From Actinomycetota bacterium (GTDB taxonomy: Bacteria; Actinomycetota; UBA4738), in NCBI GenBank assembly GCA_036847185.1, contig DAIUAM010000016.1:993-64992 (forward strand): a stretch of DNA of 64,000 bases. The letters are read 5' to 3'. The notes beneath the pieces were generated by a model that was given only the letters and a program-made list of their open reading frames with translations, was not told the origin of the DNA and made no database searches. Position 1 is the first letter of the stretch. Every line of letters starts with the position of its first letter. Both the position numbers and the translations under genes were made by a program. Shown one piece after another: positions 42,619 to 60,640 of the stretch.

Positions 42619-45516
<2,898 letters not shown>

Positions 45517-45517
45517 A

Positions 45518-47146
45518 ATGAGCGCCGCCGTGGTCCAGACCCGATCGATCCTCGCGAGGCACTGGCGGGCGTTCGCCGCCCTGGTTGCGGCCACCATCGC
45601 CGGTGCCGCCTGCGCGCCGGGCGGGAGCCCGCCCAGCTTCCCGGTGGTCGCCGCCACCGGCCTTCGCGTCCAGGTCGTCGATTCGCTGTACGACGCAGGC
45701 CGCTCCCCGTCGGTCGCGTTGGACAAGAACGGCAACCCGGAGGTCGCCTACCTCCTGTACCAGCCGGTCCTGAAGAAGGGGGATCTGCCCCCGCCGATCG
45801 TGGGCGGCGCGCCGCAACCCCCGTCCGTGATGCAAGCGGCGTATTCCGGCGGGACCTGGACCCGGGTGCCCGCCAGCGGCGGCGTCTCGCTCGGGCAGTC
45901 GGAGGCCGGCAAGGCGACGGCGATCGCGAACAAGGACGGCCAGGCCATCCCGGGGGTCAACGACGCCATGACCCTGGACGCGGCCGGAAAGCACCACATC
46001 GTGTGGGCCACCCCGTCCGGGCTCTTCTACACCGACGACTCCAACGGGACCTACGGGAGCCCGACGAAGATCAGCTCCGCACAGACGTTCGGGGCGTCCA
46101 TCGCGGTGGCCCCCGACGGTACTTCGTGGATCGCCTACTACGAAGGGTCGACCGTCAAGGTGGCAAGCGGCTCGGGCAGCACGTTCACGGAAGAGCAGGT
46201 CGCCACGACCAGCGGCGCGCCGGGAGCCACCGCGGGCGTGACGGCCATCGGAGCAGGGTCGAGCGGCCCGCAGGTCGCGTACGGCGACAACGGCACGACG
46301 GTGGTTGCCTCGAAGGTCGGGAACGCCTGGACGCCGACGCCGATCACGGGACCCGGCGGCTACGGTCTGTCGATGGCCCTCGACAAGAGCGGGAATCCGA
46401 ACCTCGCTTACTACGACCAGTCCGGCAACGTCTACGAGGTCGGATTGAACGGGGGAGGCCAGACGAAGCTGGCCACCGTGGAGCCGGCGAAGGGTACGAC
46501 GGGCCCTTCGGCGGGCTGGTCGACCGGGATCGCGGTCGATGGCTCCGGGGTCGACTACGTCGCCTGGTCCGACATCGGGCGAGGACTGGTCTACGTGGCG
46601 ACGAACGGGAGCGGCTCGTTCCAGACCCACCCCGTCCAGGGGAGCTTCGGCGGCCTCAACCCCTCGATCGCGGTCTCGGCCGACGCGCAGCACCTGGCGG
46701 TGGCGTGGTACGACGGGCCGGACGGCGACCTCGACATCGCGACGCCGCCGGCCGGCAGCCTCGCCCTGGCCTTCTCGCCCGCCCCCGTGGTCCTGCCGTC
46801 GGCGGGCCCGACCGCCCCACAGTGCTCGCCCGGCAGCTCGACCGACCTCTCCATCGCCGCCCCGGTCGGCGCCGCCGCCAAGGGATTCGACACGACCTGC
46901 CTCGCGGTCGCGGCCGGGAAGACGTTCACGGTGACCTTCGCGAACGACGACACCGGCGTGCCGCACGACTGGGCGCTCTTCGCGAACTCCGCCGCCACGA
47001 GCCCGATCGGCGGGGCCACCAGCCCGACCCCGGTCAGTCCGGGCAGCTCGCAGAAATACTCGCTGACGGCCCTGAAGGCAGGCACGTACTTCTACCACTG
47101 CGACTTCCACCAGACCACGATGACCGGCACGCTCGTCGTGAAGTAA
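45518..47146 (+). CDS. lipoprotein with 7-bladed-propeller-like domain and C-terminal type-1-copper cupredoxin domain
   Basis: Lipobox-like IAGAAC. Seven ~40-aa repeats ([DG].G.P.[VL]A[YW]...G..Y). C-terminal GVPHDW...YFYHCDFHQTTMTG carries H, C, H, M type 1 Cu ligands. Starts 1 nt after the uvrA stop. Confidence 0.7.
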   Translation: MSAAVVQTRSILARHWRAFAALVAATIAGAACAPGGSPPSFPVVAATGLRVQVVDSLYDAGRSPSVALDKNGNPEVAYLLYQPVLKKGDLPPPIVGGAPQPPSVMQAAYSGGTWTRVPASGGVSLGQSEAGKATAIANKDGQAIPGVNDAMTLDAAGKHHIVWATPSGLFYTDDSNGTYGSPTKISSAQTFGASIAVAPDGTSWIAYYEGSTVKVASGSGSTFTEEQVATTSGAPGATAGVTAIGAGSSGPQVAYGDNGTTVVASKVGNAWTPTPITGPGGYGLSMALDKSGNPNLAYYDQSGNVYEVGLNGGGQTKLATVEPAKGTTGPSAGWSTGIAVDGSGVDYVAWSDIGRGLVYVATNGSGSFQTHPVQGSFGGLNPSIAVSADAQHLAVAWYDGPDGDLDIATPPAGSLALAFSPAPVVLPSAGPTAPQCSPGSSTDLSIAAPVGAAAKGFDTTCLAVAAGKTFTVTFANDDTGVPHDWALFANSAATSPIGGATSPTPVSPGSSQKYSLTALKAGTYFYHCDFHQTTMTGTLVVK

Positions 47147-47164: not shown

Positions 47165-47641
47165 CTACCCTCGCGTCCCTACCGGATTCCGCCCCGGCCC
47201 GGCCGGGCCGGCAAGCTGCGTGAGGTCCCGCCCCGAGACGAGCGCCTCCGCAACGGTCGCCGTGTCCAACGACGACCGAAGGGCCTGGGCCGCCTCGAAC
47301 CAGGCCGGATGCACCGGGCACGGATCGTCGGGACGGCAGGTGGTGCCGCGCAGGGTGCATCGCTGGGGGAGAAGGGCCCCCTCAGAGGCTTCCACGACCT
47401 CGAGCAAGGTGATCTCCGACGGTGGGCGGGCCAGGCGGTATCCCCCCTCCCGCCCCGCTCGCGCTTCGACCAGGCCGGCTCGAACCGTGTCCCCGAGGAC
47501 CTGTGGCGTGTAGCTCACGGGGATGGACATCGAGCCCGAGATCTCCCGGATCTTGCGGTACGAACCGTCCCCCCAGGCCTCCCCCAGGTAGAGGATCGCC
47601 CGCACCGCGTAGTCCGCACGTCTCGAAAGTTGCAGGTCCAT
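47165..47641 (-). CDS. Rrf2-family transcriptional regulator (NsrR/IscR-like, Cys-x6-Cys-x5-Cys-x2-His cluster ligands)
   Basis: N-terminal wHTH (LSRRADYAVRAILYL). CTLRGTTCRPDDPCPVH cluster-binding motif. Divergent from nirK. Confidence 0.8.
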   Translation of the reverse strand: MDLQLSRRADYAVRAILYLGEAWGDGSYRKIREISGSMSIPVSYTPQVLGDTVRAGLVEARAGREGGYRLARPPSEITLLEVVEASEGALLPQRCTLRGTTCRPDDPCPVHPAWFEAAQALRSSLDTATVAEALVSGRDLTQLAGPAGPGRNPVGTRG

Positions 47642-47677
47642 CGGCCCGATCATACCCCTCGTTCAGTCTCTAGCCTA

Positions 47678-47700
47678 ACGTGTAGGAGTAAGCTACACGT
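47678..47700. promoter_or_regulatory. perfect inverted repeat ACGTGTAG-N7-CTACACGT in the rrf2/nirK divergent intergenic region (candidate Rrf2 operator)
   Basis: Read directly from the sequence. ~40 bp upstream of both the nirK ATG (47741) and the rrf2 start (47641). Confidence 0.5.
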
Positions 47701-47740
47701 GTTGGAGTCGAGGAGCACGCGGTCGGAAAGAGAGGTCCGG

Positions 47741-49222
47741 ATGGATGCGAACAGGAGCGAACGAGGCAACGCTGGGATCGCGGTCCTTGTGGTGCTGTCC
47801 CTGACGGCCCTGGGGGTCGGGACGGCCGGCGTGGTCCGCGGCGGGGCGCGGTCCTCGCGAGCGGTCCAGGCTGCTTCCGTGCCCTACCTGATGGCGGGGA
47901 GCGGCACCGGCCACGTGGTGAGCGTCGACCTGACGGCGAACGACACGACCATCCAGGAGATCGCTCCCGGCGTGAAGTTCAACGCCTGGACCTTCAACGG
48001 CACCGCACCGGGTCCCGTGATCCGCGTCCAGCAGGGCGACACCGTGCAGTTCACCCTCCACAACGCGTCGAAGAACATGTCCCATTCGATCGACTTCCAC
48101 GCCGCGCAGACGCCGTGGGACGTGAACTATCAGGCGGTGGCGCCTGGCAAGGTCTTCACCTTCAGTTGGGTGGCTCGGTTCCCGGGCGTGTTCATGTACC
48201 ACTGCGGGACCCCGCCGGTCATCCAGCACATCTCGAACGGGATGTACGGCGCGATCGTCGTCGAGCCCGCCCACACGCTCGCCCCGGCCCGCGAATACGT
48301 CTTGGTGCAGAGCGAGTTCTACCCTTCGGCCCAGCCGACGGGCGGCGTTTACTACGGCGACTACAACGCGATGCTGGCCAACCAGCCCCAGTACATCGTG
48401 TTCAACGGAGAGGCCAACCAGTTCAAGGACCACCCCTTGGTCGCCAGGCCGGGGGAGCTGATCCGGCTCTGGGTGGTGGACGCCGGCCCCAGCCACTGGT
48501 CGGCCTTCCACGTGATCGGCGCGCTGTTCGACAGCGCGTACGCGAGCGGGAACCCGGCGAACGCCGTGCACGGCGTGCAGACCGTAACCATCGCTCCCGG
48601 TGACGGGTGGATGATGGAGCTCCGGATCCCCGACGCCGGGCTGTATCCGTTCGTCACGCACTCCTTCGCCGATGCGGGGAGGGGGGCGCTGGGGATCATC
48701 AAGGTGGACCCGAAGGCGCCTGCGGCTCCGAAGTCGTACCCGACGATGGGCGACCCGATGACGGCCGGGGTGACGGCTGATACCGCGACCGGGACCACCG
48801 GCCCGAGCACCGGCGGCACCGGGATGGCCGGTATGCCCATGCCTTCGCCGGCGGCCGGCGGGACGTCTTCGCCTCCCGGTGCGGCCTCGTGCATGCCGAT
48901 GGGAACGAAGCTCGAGATCACCGCACCGGCCGGGGCGAGCACGTCGGGGTTCGACAAGACGTGCCTGGCCGCCCCCGCCGGGTTGACGTTCACCGTGACC
49001 TTCAAGAACCTGGACACGGGCATCCCGCACAACTTCGCGATCTACTCGGACTCGAACGCCACCACGTGGCTGGGCGGGGCGGAGAGCGCGGCGAAGATCG
49101 TGATGGGACCGGGGAGCGTCACCTACACGATCAAAGGGCTGCCTGCCGGCCAGTACTTCTTCCGGTGCGACATCCACCCCCAGACCATGAAGGGCGTGTT
49201 CATAGTCGCGGGCGGCCACTGA
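47741..49222 (+). CDS. nirK: copper-containing nitrite reductase (NirK) with Met-rich linker and extra C-terminal cupredoxin domain
   Basis: Signal/TM N-terminus. HNASKNMSHSIDFHAA (T1/T2 Cu His). MYHCGTPPVIQHISNGMYG (His-Cys...His...Met spacing identical to NirK). A MxxM-rich linker follows, then a second cupredoxin (GIPHNF...YFFRCDIHPQTMKG). Good SD (AAGAGAGG). Confidence 0.85.
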   Translation: MDANRSERGNAGIAVLVVLSLTALGVGTAGVVRGGARSSRAVQAASVPYLMAGSGTGHVVSVDLTANDTTIQEIAPGVKFNAWTFNGTAPGPVIRVQQGDTVQFTLHNASKNMSHSIDFHAAQTPWDVNYQAVAPGKVFTFSWVARFPGVFMYHCGTPPVIQHISNGMYGAIVVEPAHTLAPAREYVLVQSEFYPSAQPTGGVYYGDYNAMLANQPQYIVFNGEANQFKDHPLVARPGELIRLWVVDAGPSHWSAFHVIGALFDSAYASGNPANAVHGVQTVTIAPGDGWMMELRIPDAGLYPFVTHSFADAGRGALGIIKVDPKAPAAPKSYPTMGDPMTAGVTADTATGTTGPSTGGTGMAGMPMPSPAAGGTSSPPGAASCMPMGTKLEITAPAGASTSGFDKTCLAAPAGLTFTVTFKNLDTGIPHNFAIYSDSNATTWLGGAESAAKIVMGPGSVTYTIKGLPAGQYFFRCDIHPQTMKGVFIVAGGH

Positions 49223-49318: not shown

Positions 49319-51226
49319 GTGAGCGTCCGACGGCCGGAACCGTCCTCCATCCCCGACGAGCCGGGCGCGTACCTCTTCCGGGACTCCGACGGTCGCGTCG
49401 TCTACGTGGGGAAGGCGATCTCCCTCCGCAAACGGCTCGCTTCGTACTGGAGCCGCCCGCTGCATCCGCGCACCGAGGCGATGGTCGAGCACGCCGTCAC
49501 GGTCGACTGGATCCTGGCGAAGAACGAGGTCGACGCGCTGATGCTCGAGTACAACCTCATCAAGTCGCACCGGCCACGGTTCAACATCCGCTACCGCGAC
49601 GACAAGTCGTACCCGTACCTCGCGCTGACCGTGGGGGAGCGTTGGCCCCGGGCCAGGGTGATGCGGGGACCCAAGCGCAAAGGGGTCCGGTACTTCGGGC
49701 CGTACGGCCACGCCTACGCGATCCGGGAGACCCTCGACGCGCTGACCCGGGTCTTTCCTGTTCGAACGTGCAGCGACGGGTTCTTCGACCAGCGGGCCCG
49801 GGCGGGACGGCCATGCCTCTACTACGACATCGGGCGATGCGCCGGCCCGTGCGTGCCGGCATCGACCGGGGTCACCGAGGCGAGCTACCGCGAACAGGTC
49901 GACGCGCTGTCCGACTTCCTGGCCGGGCGACACAAGCCGATCCTGTCTCGCCTCGACGTGGAGATGCGGGGCGCCGCCGAGTCGCTCGAGTTCGAACGCG
50001 CCGCCAAGCTCCGGGACCAGCTCGCCGCCGCCCGCAAGGCGATCGAGAGCCAGGAGATGGTGCTCTCCCGCCGGGAGGACCTCGACGTCATCGGGATCGA
50101 AGAGGACGACCTCGAAGCCGCGTTGCAGGTGTTCTTCGTCCGGGGCGGCCGGGTGATGGGCCGGCGCGGGTGGGTGGTCGACAAGGTGGAGGACATCCAG
50201 CTCCCTGGGCTGATCTCGTCGTTCGTGCGCGAGCTGTACATGGAGCGCGAAGAGGTCCCCCGGCGCGTGCTGGTGCCGGTCCTTCCCGAGGAGCAGGAGC
50301 TGCTCGAGGAGTGGCTGTCCCGGGTCCGGGGCTCCCGCGTTCAGATCTCCGTCCCGGCCCGTGGCGACGGCCGCCGCCTGCTCCAGACGGTCACCCAGAA
50401 CGCGAAGGAAGCCTTCGTCCGCCACAAGCTGAAGCGGTCGTCGGACTTCGCTGCGCGGTCACGGGCGCTGCAGGAGCTGGGCGACGCTCTCGGCCTGCCG
50501 AACGGCCCGCTGCGCATCGAGTGCTACGACATCTCCAACCTCGGCCCGACGGACAAGGTCGCCTCGATGGTCGTGTTCGAGGACGGCCTGCCGAAGCGCA
50601 GCGATTACCGAAAGTTCGCCATCAAGAGCGTGCCGGGACAAGACGACTTTGCAAGCATGGAGGAAGTGCTCCGACGACGCCTGGCCCGCCTGCGCAGCGA
50701 AGGGGAACCGGCCGGCCCGGCCGGCCCAGAAGAAGAGACGCCCCGGCGGCGGCGGCGGTTCGCGTACTTCCCGTCGCTCATCGTGGTGGACGGAGGACGC
50801 GGGCAGCTCTCGGTGGCCGAACGGGTGCTGGCCGACTTCGGGCTCGCCATCCCTGTGGTCGGGCTCGCCAAGCGGCTGGAGGAGGTCTACCTCCCCGGCC
50901 AACCCCAACCCCTGCAGATCCCTCGCGGGTCGGAGGCGCTGTTCGTGCTCCAGCACATCCGGGACGAGGCGCACCGGTTCGCCATCACCTTCCACCGGCA
51001 GAAGCGGCAGAAACGCGCGCTCAGGTCCGTCCTGGACGATATCCCCGGCGTGGGCCCGTCGCGGAAGAAGGCCCTGCTCCGGCGATTCGGGTCGGTGGCG
51101 CGGCTGCGGACCGCCTCGTCAGAGGAGATCGACGGCACCCCGGGGGTGGGCCGATCCCTGGCCGGGGTGATCCATGAGCACCTCCATCGCGTAGAAGCAG
51201 TGACGGACGTACGGAGGGTGGGATGA
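49319..51226 (+). CDS. uvrC: excinuclease ABC subunit C
   Basis: GIY-YIG N-terminus (PGAYLFRDSDGRVVYVGKA), UvrBC-interaction region and a C-terminal HhH. Confidence 0.93.
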   Translation: MSVRRPEPSSIPDEPGAYLFRDSDGRVVYVGKAISLRKRLASYWSRPLHPRTEAMVEHAVTVDWILAKNEVDALMLEYNLIKSHRPRFNIRYRDDKSYPYLALTVGERWPRARVMRGPKRKGVRYFGPYGHAYAIRETLDALTRVFPVRTCSDGFFDQRARAGRPCLYYDIGRCAGPCVPASTGVTEASYREQVDALSDFLAGRHKPILSRLDVEMRGAAESLEFERAAKLRDQLAAARKAIESQEMVLSRREDLDVIGIEEDDLEAALQVFFVRGGRVMGRRGWVVDKVEDIQLPGLISSFVRELYMEREEVPRRVLVPVLPEEQELLEEWLSRVRGSRVQISVPARGDGRRLLQTVTQNAKEAFVRHKLKRSSDFAARSRALQELGDALGLPNGPLRIECYDISNLGPTDKVASMVVFEDGLPKRSDYRKFAIKSVPGQDDFASMEEVLRRRLARLRSEGEPAGPAGPEEETPRRRRRFAYFPSLIVVDGGRGQLSVAERVLADFGLAIPVVGLAKRLEEVYLPGQPQPLQIPRGSEALFVLQHIRDEAHRFAITFHRQKRQKRALRSVLDDIPGVGPSRKKALLRRFGSVARLRTASSEEIDGTPGVGRSLAGVIHEHLHRVEAVTDVRRVG

Positions 51227-59673: not shown

Positions 59674-60640
59674 TCCGAAGGAAGGCACGACCACAACGTT
59701 CGCCGCCGGTGGTTCGGTCGGCGAGGCCGTGATCGGTGGAGCGATCCAGGTGGGTGCGGCCGACCGGGCGCTCAGCACCCGGGAACTGGCCTGGCGCCGG
59801 TTCAAGCGCCACCACCTGGCCATGGCCAGCTCGATCCTGCTCGTCCTGGTCGCGCTCGCGGCCGTCCTGGTCCCGCTGTTCTACAAGTTCAACTATCACC
59901 AGACGTTCACGGCCGGAGCCCTCGTCGCGCCGTTCCCACACAGCGGACCGAGCCTGAAGCACCTGTTCGGGGTCGACGAGATCGGCCGGGACTATTTCAT
60001 CCGGGTGATCTACGGAGGTCGGATCTCGCTCATGGTCGGGTTCTCCGTGGCGATCTCTGCCGGCGTGATCGGCGCGCTGGTCGGTTCGCTTGCCGGGTAC
60101 TACGGCGGCTGGATCGATAACTCGCTCATGCGGGTGACCGACCTGTTCCTGGCCATGCCGTTCCTGGTCATCTTGATCGTGGCCTCCACGGTGCTGCACG
60201 GCAGCGTGTTCGACATCGTGCTGATCCTCTCGCTGTTCTTCTGGATGCCGGACGCCCGCATCGTCCGAGGGCTGTTCCTCTCGCTGAAGGAGAAGGAGTT
60301 CGTCGAAGCCGCGAAGTCCTCAGGCGCCACGAACAAGCGGATCATCTTCAACCACATCCTCCCCAACACGCTGGGCCCGATCACGGTCAACGTGACCCTC
60401 GGCGTGGCGGCGGCGATCCTGACGGAGTCGGCGCTCTCCTTCCTGGGGTTCGGCGTCCAGCCGCCGGTTCCGACGTGGGGGAACCTGCTGAACGAAGCCC
60501 AGCCCATGACCCAGGTCTCGCCGTACCTGACCTGGTTCCCGGGCCTGTTCATCCTGCTCACCGTCCTCTGCGTGAACTTCCTGGGGGACGGGCTCCGAGA
60601 CGCTCTGGACCCGCACCAGAAGATCGGGGTGGCGGTGTGA
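59666..60640 (+). CDS. peptide ABC transporter permease (OppC/DppC-like)
   Basis: OppC N-terminal domain plus BPD_transp_1. Paralogue of the orphan permease at 39371..40324. Confidence 0.88.
   Translation: MPDPKEGTTTTFAAGGSVGEAVIGGAIQVGAADRALSTRELAWRRFKRHHLAMASSILLVLVALAAVLVPLFYKFNYHQTFTAGALVAPFPHSGPSLKHLFGVDEIGRDYFIRVIYGGRISLMVGFSVAISAGVIGALVGSLAGYYGGWIDNSLMRVTDLFLAMPFLVILIVASTVLHGSVFDIVLILSLFFWMPDARIVRGLFLSLKEKEFVEAAKSSGATNKRIIFNHILPNTLGPITVNVTLGVAAAILTESALSFLGFGVQPPVPTWGNLLNEAQPMTQVSPYLTWFPGLFILLTVLCVNFLGDGLRDALDPHQKIGVAV

Follow-up and report, generated by a model that had tools for sequence, protein, structure and literature searches.

Whether a nitrite reductase gene and the regulator gene divergent to it are controlled from a single palindromic site between them is the question raised by a short intergenic region in a 64-kb stretch of DNA (hereafter, the window) from an Actinomycetota bacterium. 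Copper nitrite reductase makes NO, a step towards soil N2O emission, and the lineages carrying an rrf2-nirK pair are abundant and mostly uncultured. In the window, rrf2 (47165-47641, minus strand) encodes a 158-aa Rrf2-family regulator and nirK (47741-49222, plus strand) a 493-aa copper nitrite reductase; the former is predicted to bind the intervening dyad and the latter to be the target of regulation. Our main reading, to which we assign a probability of roughly 0.7, is that a 23-bp dyad at 47678-47700 (site 1) would be the main operator of the adjacent Rrf2 protein, the holo-dimer repressing both promoters and damage to its cluster releasing it. Together with a third gene, the pair sits between uvrA (42619-45516) and uvrC (49319-51226). 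This third gene (45518-47146, plus strand) starts 2 nt past the uvrA stop codon and converges on rrf2; the sole recognisable domain of its 542-aa product is a C-terminal cupredoxin, a paralog of the one with which NirK ends, and the protein may be an electron-transfer partner.

The initial annotation had placed a perfect 8-bp inverted repeat with a 7-nt spacer at 47678-47700, within a 99-bp divergent spacer and some 40 bp from each start codon, and both coordinates and complementarity proved exact. Read from the window sequence, the dyad ACGTGTAG-GAGTAAG-CTACACGT, to which no strand is assigned, has 8-nt arms that are 100% complementary and goes no further, the outer pair A47677/G47701 being non-complementary. 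Given starts at 47641 and 47741, the rrf2-nirK spacer is indeed 99 bp (47642-47740); 36 nt separate the dyad from rrf2 and 40 nt separate it from nirK, and the dyad centre (47689) is 2 bp off that of the spacer. The flanking genes are likewise as they had been named, the left-hand product belonging to the Pfam Rrf2 family (99 bits) and the right-hand one being a copper nitrite reductase. A near-identical public contig (L063; DHLK01000198.1, GCA_002405235.1), whose NirK is 99% identical, is annotated with Rrf2 beginning at ATG 47653 (162 aa) and NirK at GTG 47699 (507 aa), the latter inside the dyad. We favour 47641 and 47741 as the probable starts because the former (MDLQLSRR...) agrees with the N-termini of 34 homologs and with a conserved -10-like hexamer 7 nt upstream, and the latter is an ATG preceded by a putative ribosome-binding site (GGAAAGAGAGG, 47725-47735).

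A lone perfect inverted repeat of 8 bp is improbable only to a modest degree. In the window there are 37 such repeats with spacers of 3-11 nt, and chance expectation per 99 bp is 0.057 repeats, or 0.008 if the spacer is 7 nt. When up to 3 mismatches were allowed, the dyad pattern had its sole match within the 64-kb window at this position, and the same search on shuffled sequence gave at least one match in 4 of 100 shuffles. The significance of the dyad lies in its conservation across loci, rather than in the repeat alone. An alignment of Rrf2 homologs, used as the query against GTDB representative genomes, gave 50 loci (41-61% identity) from MAGs of Actinomycetota, Acidimicrobiia, Chloroflexota/Dehalococcoidia, and Dormibacterota; the comparative loci, about 60 in total, are all MAG or metagenome contigs with predicted gene starts. 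In most of these, ACGTnnAG-N7-CTnnACGT occurs upstream of the orthologous rrf2, the fuller clade consensus being ACGTATAGTA-N3-TACTATACGT, and site 1 fits this clade consensus in the form ACGTnnAG(TA)-N3-(TA)CTnnACGT. A core match of at least 11/12 was present in 25 of 49 regions of 300 bp upstream of rrf2 vs 5 of 1294 control windows drawn from these loci. All dyads of a 4-mer and its reverse complement were also counted de novo, independently of the window's own pattern, and here ACGT-N15-ACGT ranked first (17 of 49 loci vs 0.23 expected) and AGTA-N3-TACT second.

The same element was recovered with a weight matrix built from 20 loci with the window left out, by which the dyad ranks first in the 64 kb (22.6 bits). 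Two metagenome relatives share the layout and score as highly, L060 (71% identity, 22.0 bits) with a divergent nirK and L062 (74% identity, 23.1 bits) without nirK, and sites of 14-22 bits were found in four new divergent loci that were sampled through NirK and had DNA at hand (L064-L067). Information content in the matrix is concentrated in both arms and is about 0 at operator positions 11-13, and symmetric arms conserved in sequence are what recognition by a symmetric dimer would be expected to produce. Judged by these sequence comparisons, the 23-bp palindrome is genuine, a cis-element that has been conserved in evolution and goes with rrf2. Metagenome contigs searched with the strict consensus ACGTNTAGTANNNTACTANACGT yielded nine matches, all of them on low-GC contigs and none with Rrf2 or NirK nearby, and seven of the nine were a single locus seen in several samples; this consensus is too stringent, and the scan is uninformative on the regulon. 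The repeatedly sampled locus (L051, L053, and L055-L059, for example L051:574-596), present on seven contigs of one metagenome series, carries a perfect 10-3-10 palindrome, ACGTTTAGTA-N3-TACTAAACGT, and appears unrelated.

Conservation of this kind also bears on whether the repeat acts as RNA, that is, as a hairpin in the nirK leader or a terminator, or is a palindrome of no consequence. An 8-bp stem with a 7-nt loop could form, and roughly 0.06 repeats per 99 bp would arise by chance, yet across 27 sites it is the bases themselves that are conserved at the ACGT and AG/CT positions. No covariation was detected, positions 5/19 being complementary in 8 of the 27 sites and positions 6/18 in 11, as base frequencies predict, and this lack of covariation at variable arm positions marks the dyad as a protein-binding site and excludes a conserved hairpin. 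An RNA hairpin was also rejected on its fold z-score of -1.6, which is unexceptional, and on the lack of a U-tract after the stem. A chance palindrome is excluded by conservation across about 40 loci, and we give this pair of explanations hardly any credence.

That the binding protein is the product of the adjacent gene is suggested by the company that the motif keeps. It tracks rrf2 beside FhaA, DAO oxidoreductase, mycothiol transferase, or CHAT-system genes where nirK is absent, thus co-occurring with the rrf2 clade across three phyla and many neighbour types. In a long-form subfamily, the recognition helix reads TYASQ or TFVSQ vs SYTPQ and the motif is shifted to ACGTCAAG-N7-CTATACTT, a joint change expected if regulator and site co-evolve. 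Some other transcription factor encoded elsewhere, such as a global anaerobic or NO regulator, might also occupy a palindrome at nirK, but this we consider very improbable given the co-occurrence with rrf2 and the parallel shift of motif and recognition helix just described. The 23-bp 8-7-8 geometry is, moreover, that of an Rrf2 operator (PMC9338935), and the motif is missing at L068, the sole nirK locus without Rrf2 among the seven sampled; although a single case, L068 would be consistent with the model. Operators of Rrf2 homodimers are dyads of about 23-29 bp; the length noted in the initial annotation falls in this range and recurs across loci, and we predict with high confidence that the adjacent Rrf2 protein binds the dyad.

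The long-form loci are those of Acidimicrobiales (L029-L033, L037-L042, L044-L046, and L048), in which Rrf2 proteins of 290-350 aa (for example L030:6001-6954 and L041:5788-6843) carry an unannotated C-terminal extension of ~170 aa. There the shifted motif stands at -28 with a second site at about -82, and neighbouring genes encode a Fer4_5 protein, a Fer4/Pyr_redox_2 flavoprotein, and a NIR_SIR nitrite/sulfite reductase.

Two further readings agree that Rrf2 binds the dyad and differ over what this does to nirK. In most loci, 35-38 nt separate the rrf2 start from the rrf2-side edge of the site, and autoregulation of rrf2, which had been proposed for this locus from the start, is well supported because the position of the site is fixed at the rrf2 promoter with or without nirK. 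It is conceivable that the dyad serves rrf2 autoregulation alone, nirK having its own promoter and regulator and being adjacent through co-inheritance. This distance is the most constant feature of the loci, the site is kept where nirK is absent, and in L014 and L017 the nirK start is >220 bp from the main site, so that direct nirK control would not be universal. In the window, by contrast, the spacer is only 99 bp and the operator fills its centre, and no FNR, NnrR, DosR, or NsrR box is present in the intergenic region. The nirK-side edge, too, keeps a narrow distance from the nirK ATG (35-41 nt) in eight loci, namely the window, L063-L067, L027, and L043, and L067, with a 154-bp spacer, has two separate sites, one per gene, of which the nirK-side site scores 22 bits. 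Linkage speaks in the same direction: of the 50 loci found via Rrf2, 17 have nirK as the divergent gene, and when sampling was done through NirK, Rrf2 adjoined 6 of 7 homologs on long contigs (five divergent, one tandem). A role in autoregulation only is therefore, in our estimation, quite unlikely, and the predicted control of nirK, as the initial annotation had envisaged, is well grounded in this adjacency and in the geometry of the eight loci.

A second, weaker operator is predicted at 47659-47681 (site 2, TCGTTCAGTCTCTAGCCTAACGT, no strand assigned), which overlaps site 1 by a common ACGT and lies 19 bp nearer rrf2. With the matrix that excludes the window it scores 10.8 bits, the second-best match of the window. 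The best match elsewhere in the window (9.5 bits at 60473) falls within a coding sequence and was set aside as noise, and within the 64 kb the matrix scan found no additional dyad copies near NO-related genes. Copies of at least 9 bits occur at the +19 offset in 14 of 34 loci vs a background of 1e-4 per position, and the two-site layout is also present in L060, L062, and L063-L066. In L063, the near-identical contig, one SNP falls in the secondary site, which reads TCTGTAG vs TCTCTAG in the window.

Site 2 covers the spacer and the -35 region of the predicted rrf2 promoter. The probable -10 hexamer, TATGAT (47649-47654, minus strand), ends 7 nt before the ATG, and a TANNNT hexamer, typically TACACT or TAGACT, ends 6-8 nt ahead of the rrf2 start codon in 29 of 42 short-form loci, where 0.8% would be expected. 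Leaderless genes of actinobacteria have a known promoter geometry; the conserved position of TANNNT fits this geometry and implies that the rrf2 mRNA is leaderless, with a start at about 47641. Relative to this putative transcript, site 1 would extend from about -59 to -37 and site 2 from about -40 to -18. Alignment of 11 intergenic regions showed the operator and promoter blocks to be conserved and the nirK-proximal sequence not to be. A consensus sigma-70 promoter scan of 47400-47950 gave no match, along with one weak terminator-like match, and the placement of the promoter consequently depends on the conserved TANNNT hexamer.

On the nirK side, no TA dinucleotide, and hence no TANNNT, occurs between the dyad and the ATG (47701-47740), so any intergenic nirK promoter would overlap the operator or sit upstream of it. 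The hexamer TAAGCT (47689-47694, plus strand), inside the dyad, is a candidate nirK -10, and the nirK-side arm in L064-L066 holds TATAGA, TAAAGT, or TACAGT; a nirK -10 element within the dyad is nonetheless speculative. These hexamers bear on whether the same Rrf2 and operator might activate nirK, or play a dual role there, with rrf2 still autorepressed. IscR behaves in this way at type-2 sites. The NsrR of Thermus activates PnirJ and PnorC while repressing PnirS (PMC5748679), and a site centre ~51 nt upstream of the nirK ATG could stand just upstream of the promoter if the leader were very short; seen from the rrf2 start, a centre at about -48 would also permit activation. However, the 40 nt from dyad to ATG offer no plausible -10 downstream of the site, the -10-like hexamers in the arm of L064-L066 fit promoter occlusion, and the Rrf2 sites so far characterised at divergent promoters are mostly repressive (PMC5015018, PMC1274295). 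We accordingly regard activation at nirK as unlikely and joint repression of rrf2 and nirK as probable.

The regulator itself scores 99.3 bits against PF02082 (cutoff 30) and 97.8 bits against TIGR00738 (cutoff 73.3), and its AlphaFold model (pLDDT 87.6) has a winged helix-turn-helix and a long dimerisation helix. The top 38 Foldseek matches in the PDB were all Rrf2 proteins, the closest being RsrR, CymR, IscR, and NsrR. Residues D10, C95, C102, C108, and H111 do not vary among 35 sequences; in a profile alignment, D10, C95, C102, and C108 fall on D8, C93, C99, and C105 of the Streptomyces coelicolor NsrR (ScNsrR), and C108, H111, and W114 on C104, H107, and W110 of IscR, with a Cys/His spacing of Cx6Cx5Cx2H here vs Cx5Cx5Cx2H in IscR. 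Because the invariant D10, three Cys, and H111 align with known cluster ligands, the regulator very likely carries an Fe-S cluster, and the ligand set would fit a (Cys)3Asp [4Fe-4S] or a (Cys)3His [2Fe-2S] cluster. NsrR and IscR, which the initial annotation named as Rrf2 regulators, are relatives at the level of the family; the protein is an ortholog of neither, and its operator fits the consensus of neither. Scores are far under the curated cutoffs for IscR, NsrR, RirA, CymR, and the SUF regulator, at 42.7 bits vs 182 for NsrR (NF008240) and 59.9 vs 207.55 (TIGR02010) and 43.4 vs 275 (NF008110) for IscR. By these profile and motif comparisons, the regulator belongs to a distinct Rrf2 subfamily with its own operator, neither NsrR nor IscR proper. 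NirK begins with a membrane anchor or signal and ends in a cupredoxin domain; its best solved relatives are Geobacillus NirK (about 1e-65).

Several neighbours of rrf2 in other loci are worth recording. A small Cys-rich ORF of ~87-95 aa (consensus MARWEGFxxCPGCGFD...CPYLPEELDVFCPxCRFNFFTMEGNPPCEDP) immediately follows rrf2 in 12 related loci (L001, L002, L004, L007, L008, L010, L011, L017, L022, L026, L035, for example L035:6593-6856, and L047) and is absent from the window, L060, and L062; the three copies scanned had no Pfam match, and its product may be a partner of the regulator. In L060 (6515-9705), rrf2 is followed on the same strand by genes for a NuoF-like flavoprotein (Complex1_51K, NADH_4Fe-4S) and then a 544-aa protein without a family match, neither of which adjoins rrf2 in the window. 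In L024 (4445-9802), L025, and L032, rrf2 comes after a GAF-GAF-HisKA_3 histidine kinase of DevS/DosT-like architecture, and a 23-bit motif stands just past the rrf2 stop codon, before genes for a polytopic membrane protein and a NasC-like molybdopterin oxidoreductase. Other members of this Rrf2 family adjoin NasC-like, NIR_SIR, and DMSO-reductase-type enzymes. L009 has no site upstream of rrf2 and instead a 25.9-bit site (1934-1956) at the annotated start of ctaD, 756 bp away from where rrf2 begins; the ctaD product, subunit I of cytochrome c oxidase, scores above the TIGR02891 cutoff.

We propose that a cluster-loaded Rrf2 homodimer would bind the 23-bp dyad with one winged helix-turn-helix on each ACGTnnAG arm, leaving the centre largely uncontacted, and that sites 1 and 2 would form a tandem operator filling the core of the divergent rrf2/nirK promoter region. 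Bound protein would block the -35 and spacer region, giving rrf2 autorepression, and the operator, 40 nt upstream of the nirK ATG and over or downstream of any intergenic nirK promoter, would repress nirK as well. Modification or loss of the Fe-S cluster would then release the protein, so that nitrite reductase and regulator are induced together. The likeliest trigger would be nitrosylation of the cluster by NO, the product of NirK. Since the protein falls far below the NsrR and IscR cutoffs and the nearest solved fold is that of the redox sensor RsrR, NO is not established as the signal, and we put its chances at about even.

That Fe-S repressors of the Rrf2 family can gate NO-related genes is well established, and the model will not surprise a specialist; what appears to be new here is a distinct Rrf2 subfamily, its own operator, and the tandem arrangement of sites. 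The results are useful for predicting the control of nitrite reduction in uncultured soil lineages, the operator consensus providing a concrete target for EMSA or reporter assays and a matrix for regulon prediction in any MAG, and the regulator being a candidate sensor whose cluster type and signal are directly testable. A bolder reading, which we hold only tentatively and consider doubtful at present, is that the clade might constitute a previously undescribed class of Rrf2 sensor, an NO, nitrite, or redox switch over a three-domain NirK. Its marks would be hybrid ligands (Asp10, Cys3, and His111), a tandem operator sharing ACGT in a 19-bp register, a dedicated small Cys-rich partner protein in many lineages, and a wide distribution in uncultured soil Actinomycetota, Chloroflexota, and Dormibacterota. 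If this were true, such regulators would govern nitrate or nitrite reductases in sister lineages and set NO and N2O output in abundant soil bacteria.

Among known systems, no published binding motif has a significant match in the intergenic region, those compared being NsrR, ScNsrR hmpA1, IscR types 1 and 2, FNR/DNR, NnrR, DosR, and Thermus NsrR. The best NsrR-type matches (9/14, 11/22, and 13/23) were equalled or beaten by 13-29% of random 140-bp segments, and the best IscR matches (15/25 for type 1 and 5/9 for type 2) were at chance level. A literature search on Rrf2 and nirK in Actinobacteria and on the divergent arrangement gave no description of this clade or motif. IscR, the [2Fe-2S] regulator of Fe-S homeostasis, resembles the present protein in its Cys3-His ligands (C92, C98, C104, and H107) with a CxxH motif and in the recognition helix S-Y-x-x-Q common to both; no isc or suf genes are among the annotated neighbours in the window or the comparative loci. 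The NsrR of the Thermus thermophilus nic cluster (PMC5748679) is likewise a non-proteobacterial Fe-S Rrf2 protein beside denitrification genes with its own divergent palindromic motif, and the small partner proteins encoded alongside it bring to mind the Cys-rich ORF of the 12 related loci. It differs in its motif (CTTGACCNNGGTCATGG, no match here), in acting as both activator and repressor, and in being without a conserved acidic fourth ligand.

The closest solved fold is that of RsrR from Streptomyces venezuelae, a redox-sensing [2Fe-2S] protein (PDB 6HSD; Foldseek E 2e-9, 30% identity), which represses both members of a divergent gene pair and has two full sites in the 107 bp between them (PMC5015018). 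Shared features are two sites in a short divergent spacer and, in the protein, D10 at the position of the RsrR ligand E8. Of the RsrR ligands E8, H12, C90, and C110, the Cys pair aligns with C95 and C108, but H12 corresponds to the invariant R14, and owing to this replacement of His12 by Arg14 the RsrR ligand set is not matched here. RsrR also differs in having a large NAD(P)H-related regulon without a nitrogen-oxide link. Its class-1 motif is an 11-3-11 inverted repeat, and the clade consensus can be read as 10-3-10.

For the target gene, a precedent is the proteobacterial NsrR, which represses nirK in Nitrosomonas europaea and, in Neisseria and Chromobacterium, is predicted to act on nirK and norB (PMC1274295). 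It shares with the present regulator the Rrf2 family, three C-terminal Cys, a palindromic operator, the control of copper nitrite reductase (predicted here), and release by NO or nitrite (expected here), and its characteristic linkage to NO-producing or NO-detoxifying genes is found here through the divergent nirK. The operators are unlike, ACGTnnAG-N7-CTnnACGT here vs gATGyAT-N5-ATrCATc for NsrR, as are the hosts, Actinomycetota, Chloroflexota, and Dormibacterota here and Proteobacteria in the comparison. ScNsrR, a [4Fe-4S] protein with ligands D8/C93/C99/C105 and a 23-bp hmpA1 operator (PDB 5N07, 7B0C), differs in sequence (~22-24% identity), in Cys spacing (Cx6Cx5C here vs Cx5Cx5C), in target (hmpA vs nirK here), and in its operator, to which the match of 13/23 is not significant; the invariant His111 is an addition here. 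The 23-bp operator of ScNsrR can, however, be altered in its central 7 bp without effect (PMC9338935), and the present system is alike in operator length, in an unspecific central 7 bp, in the four aligned ligand positions, and in the autoregulation that we predict for it.
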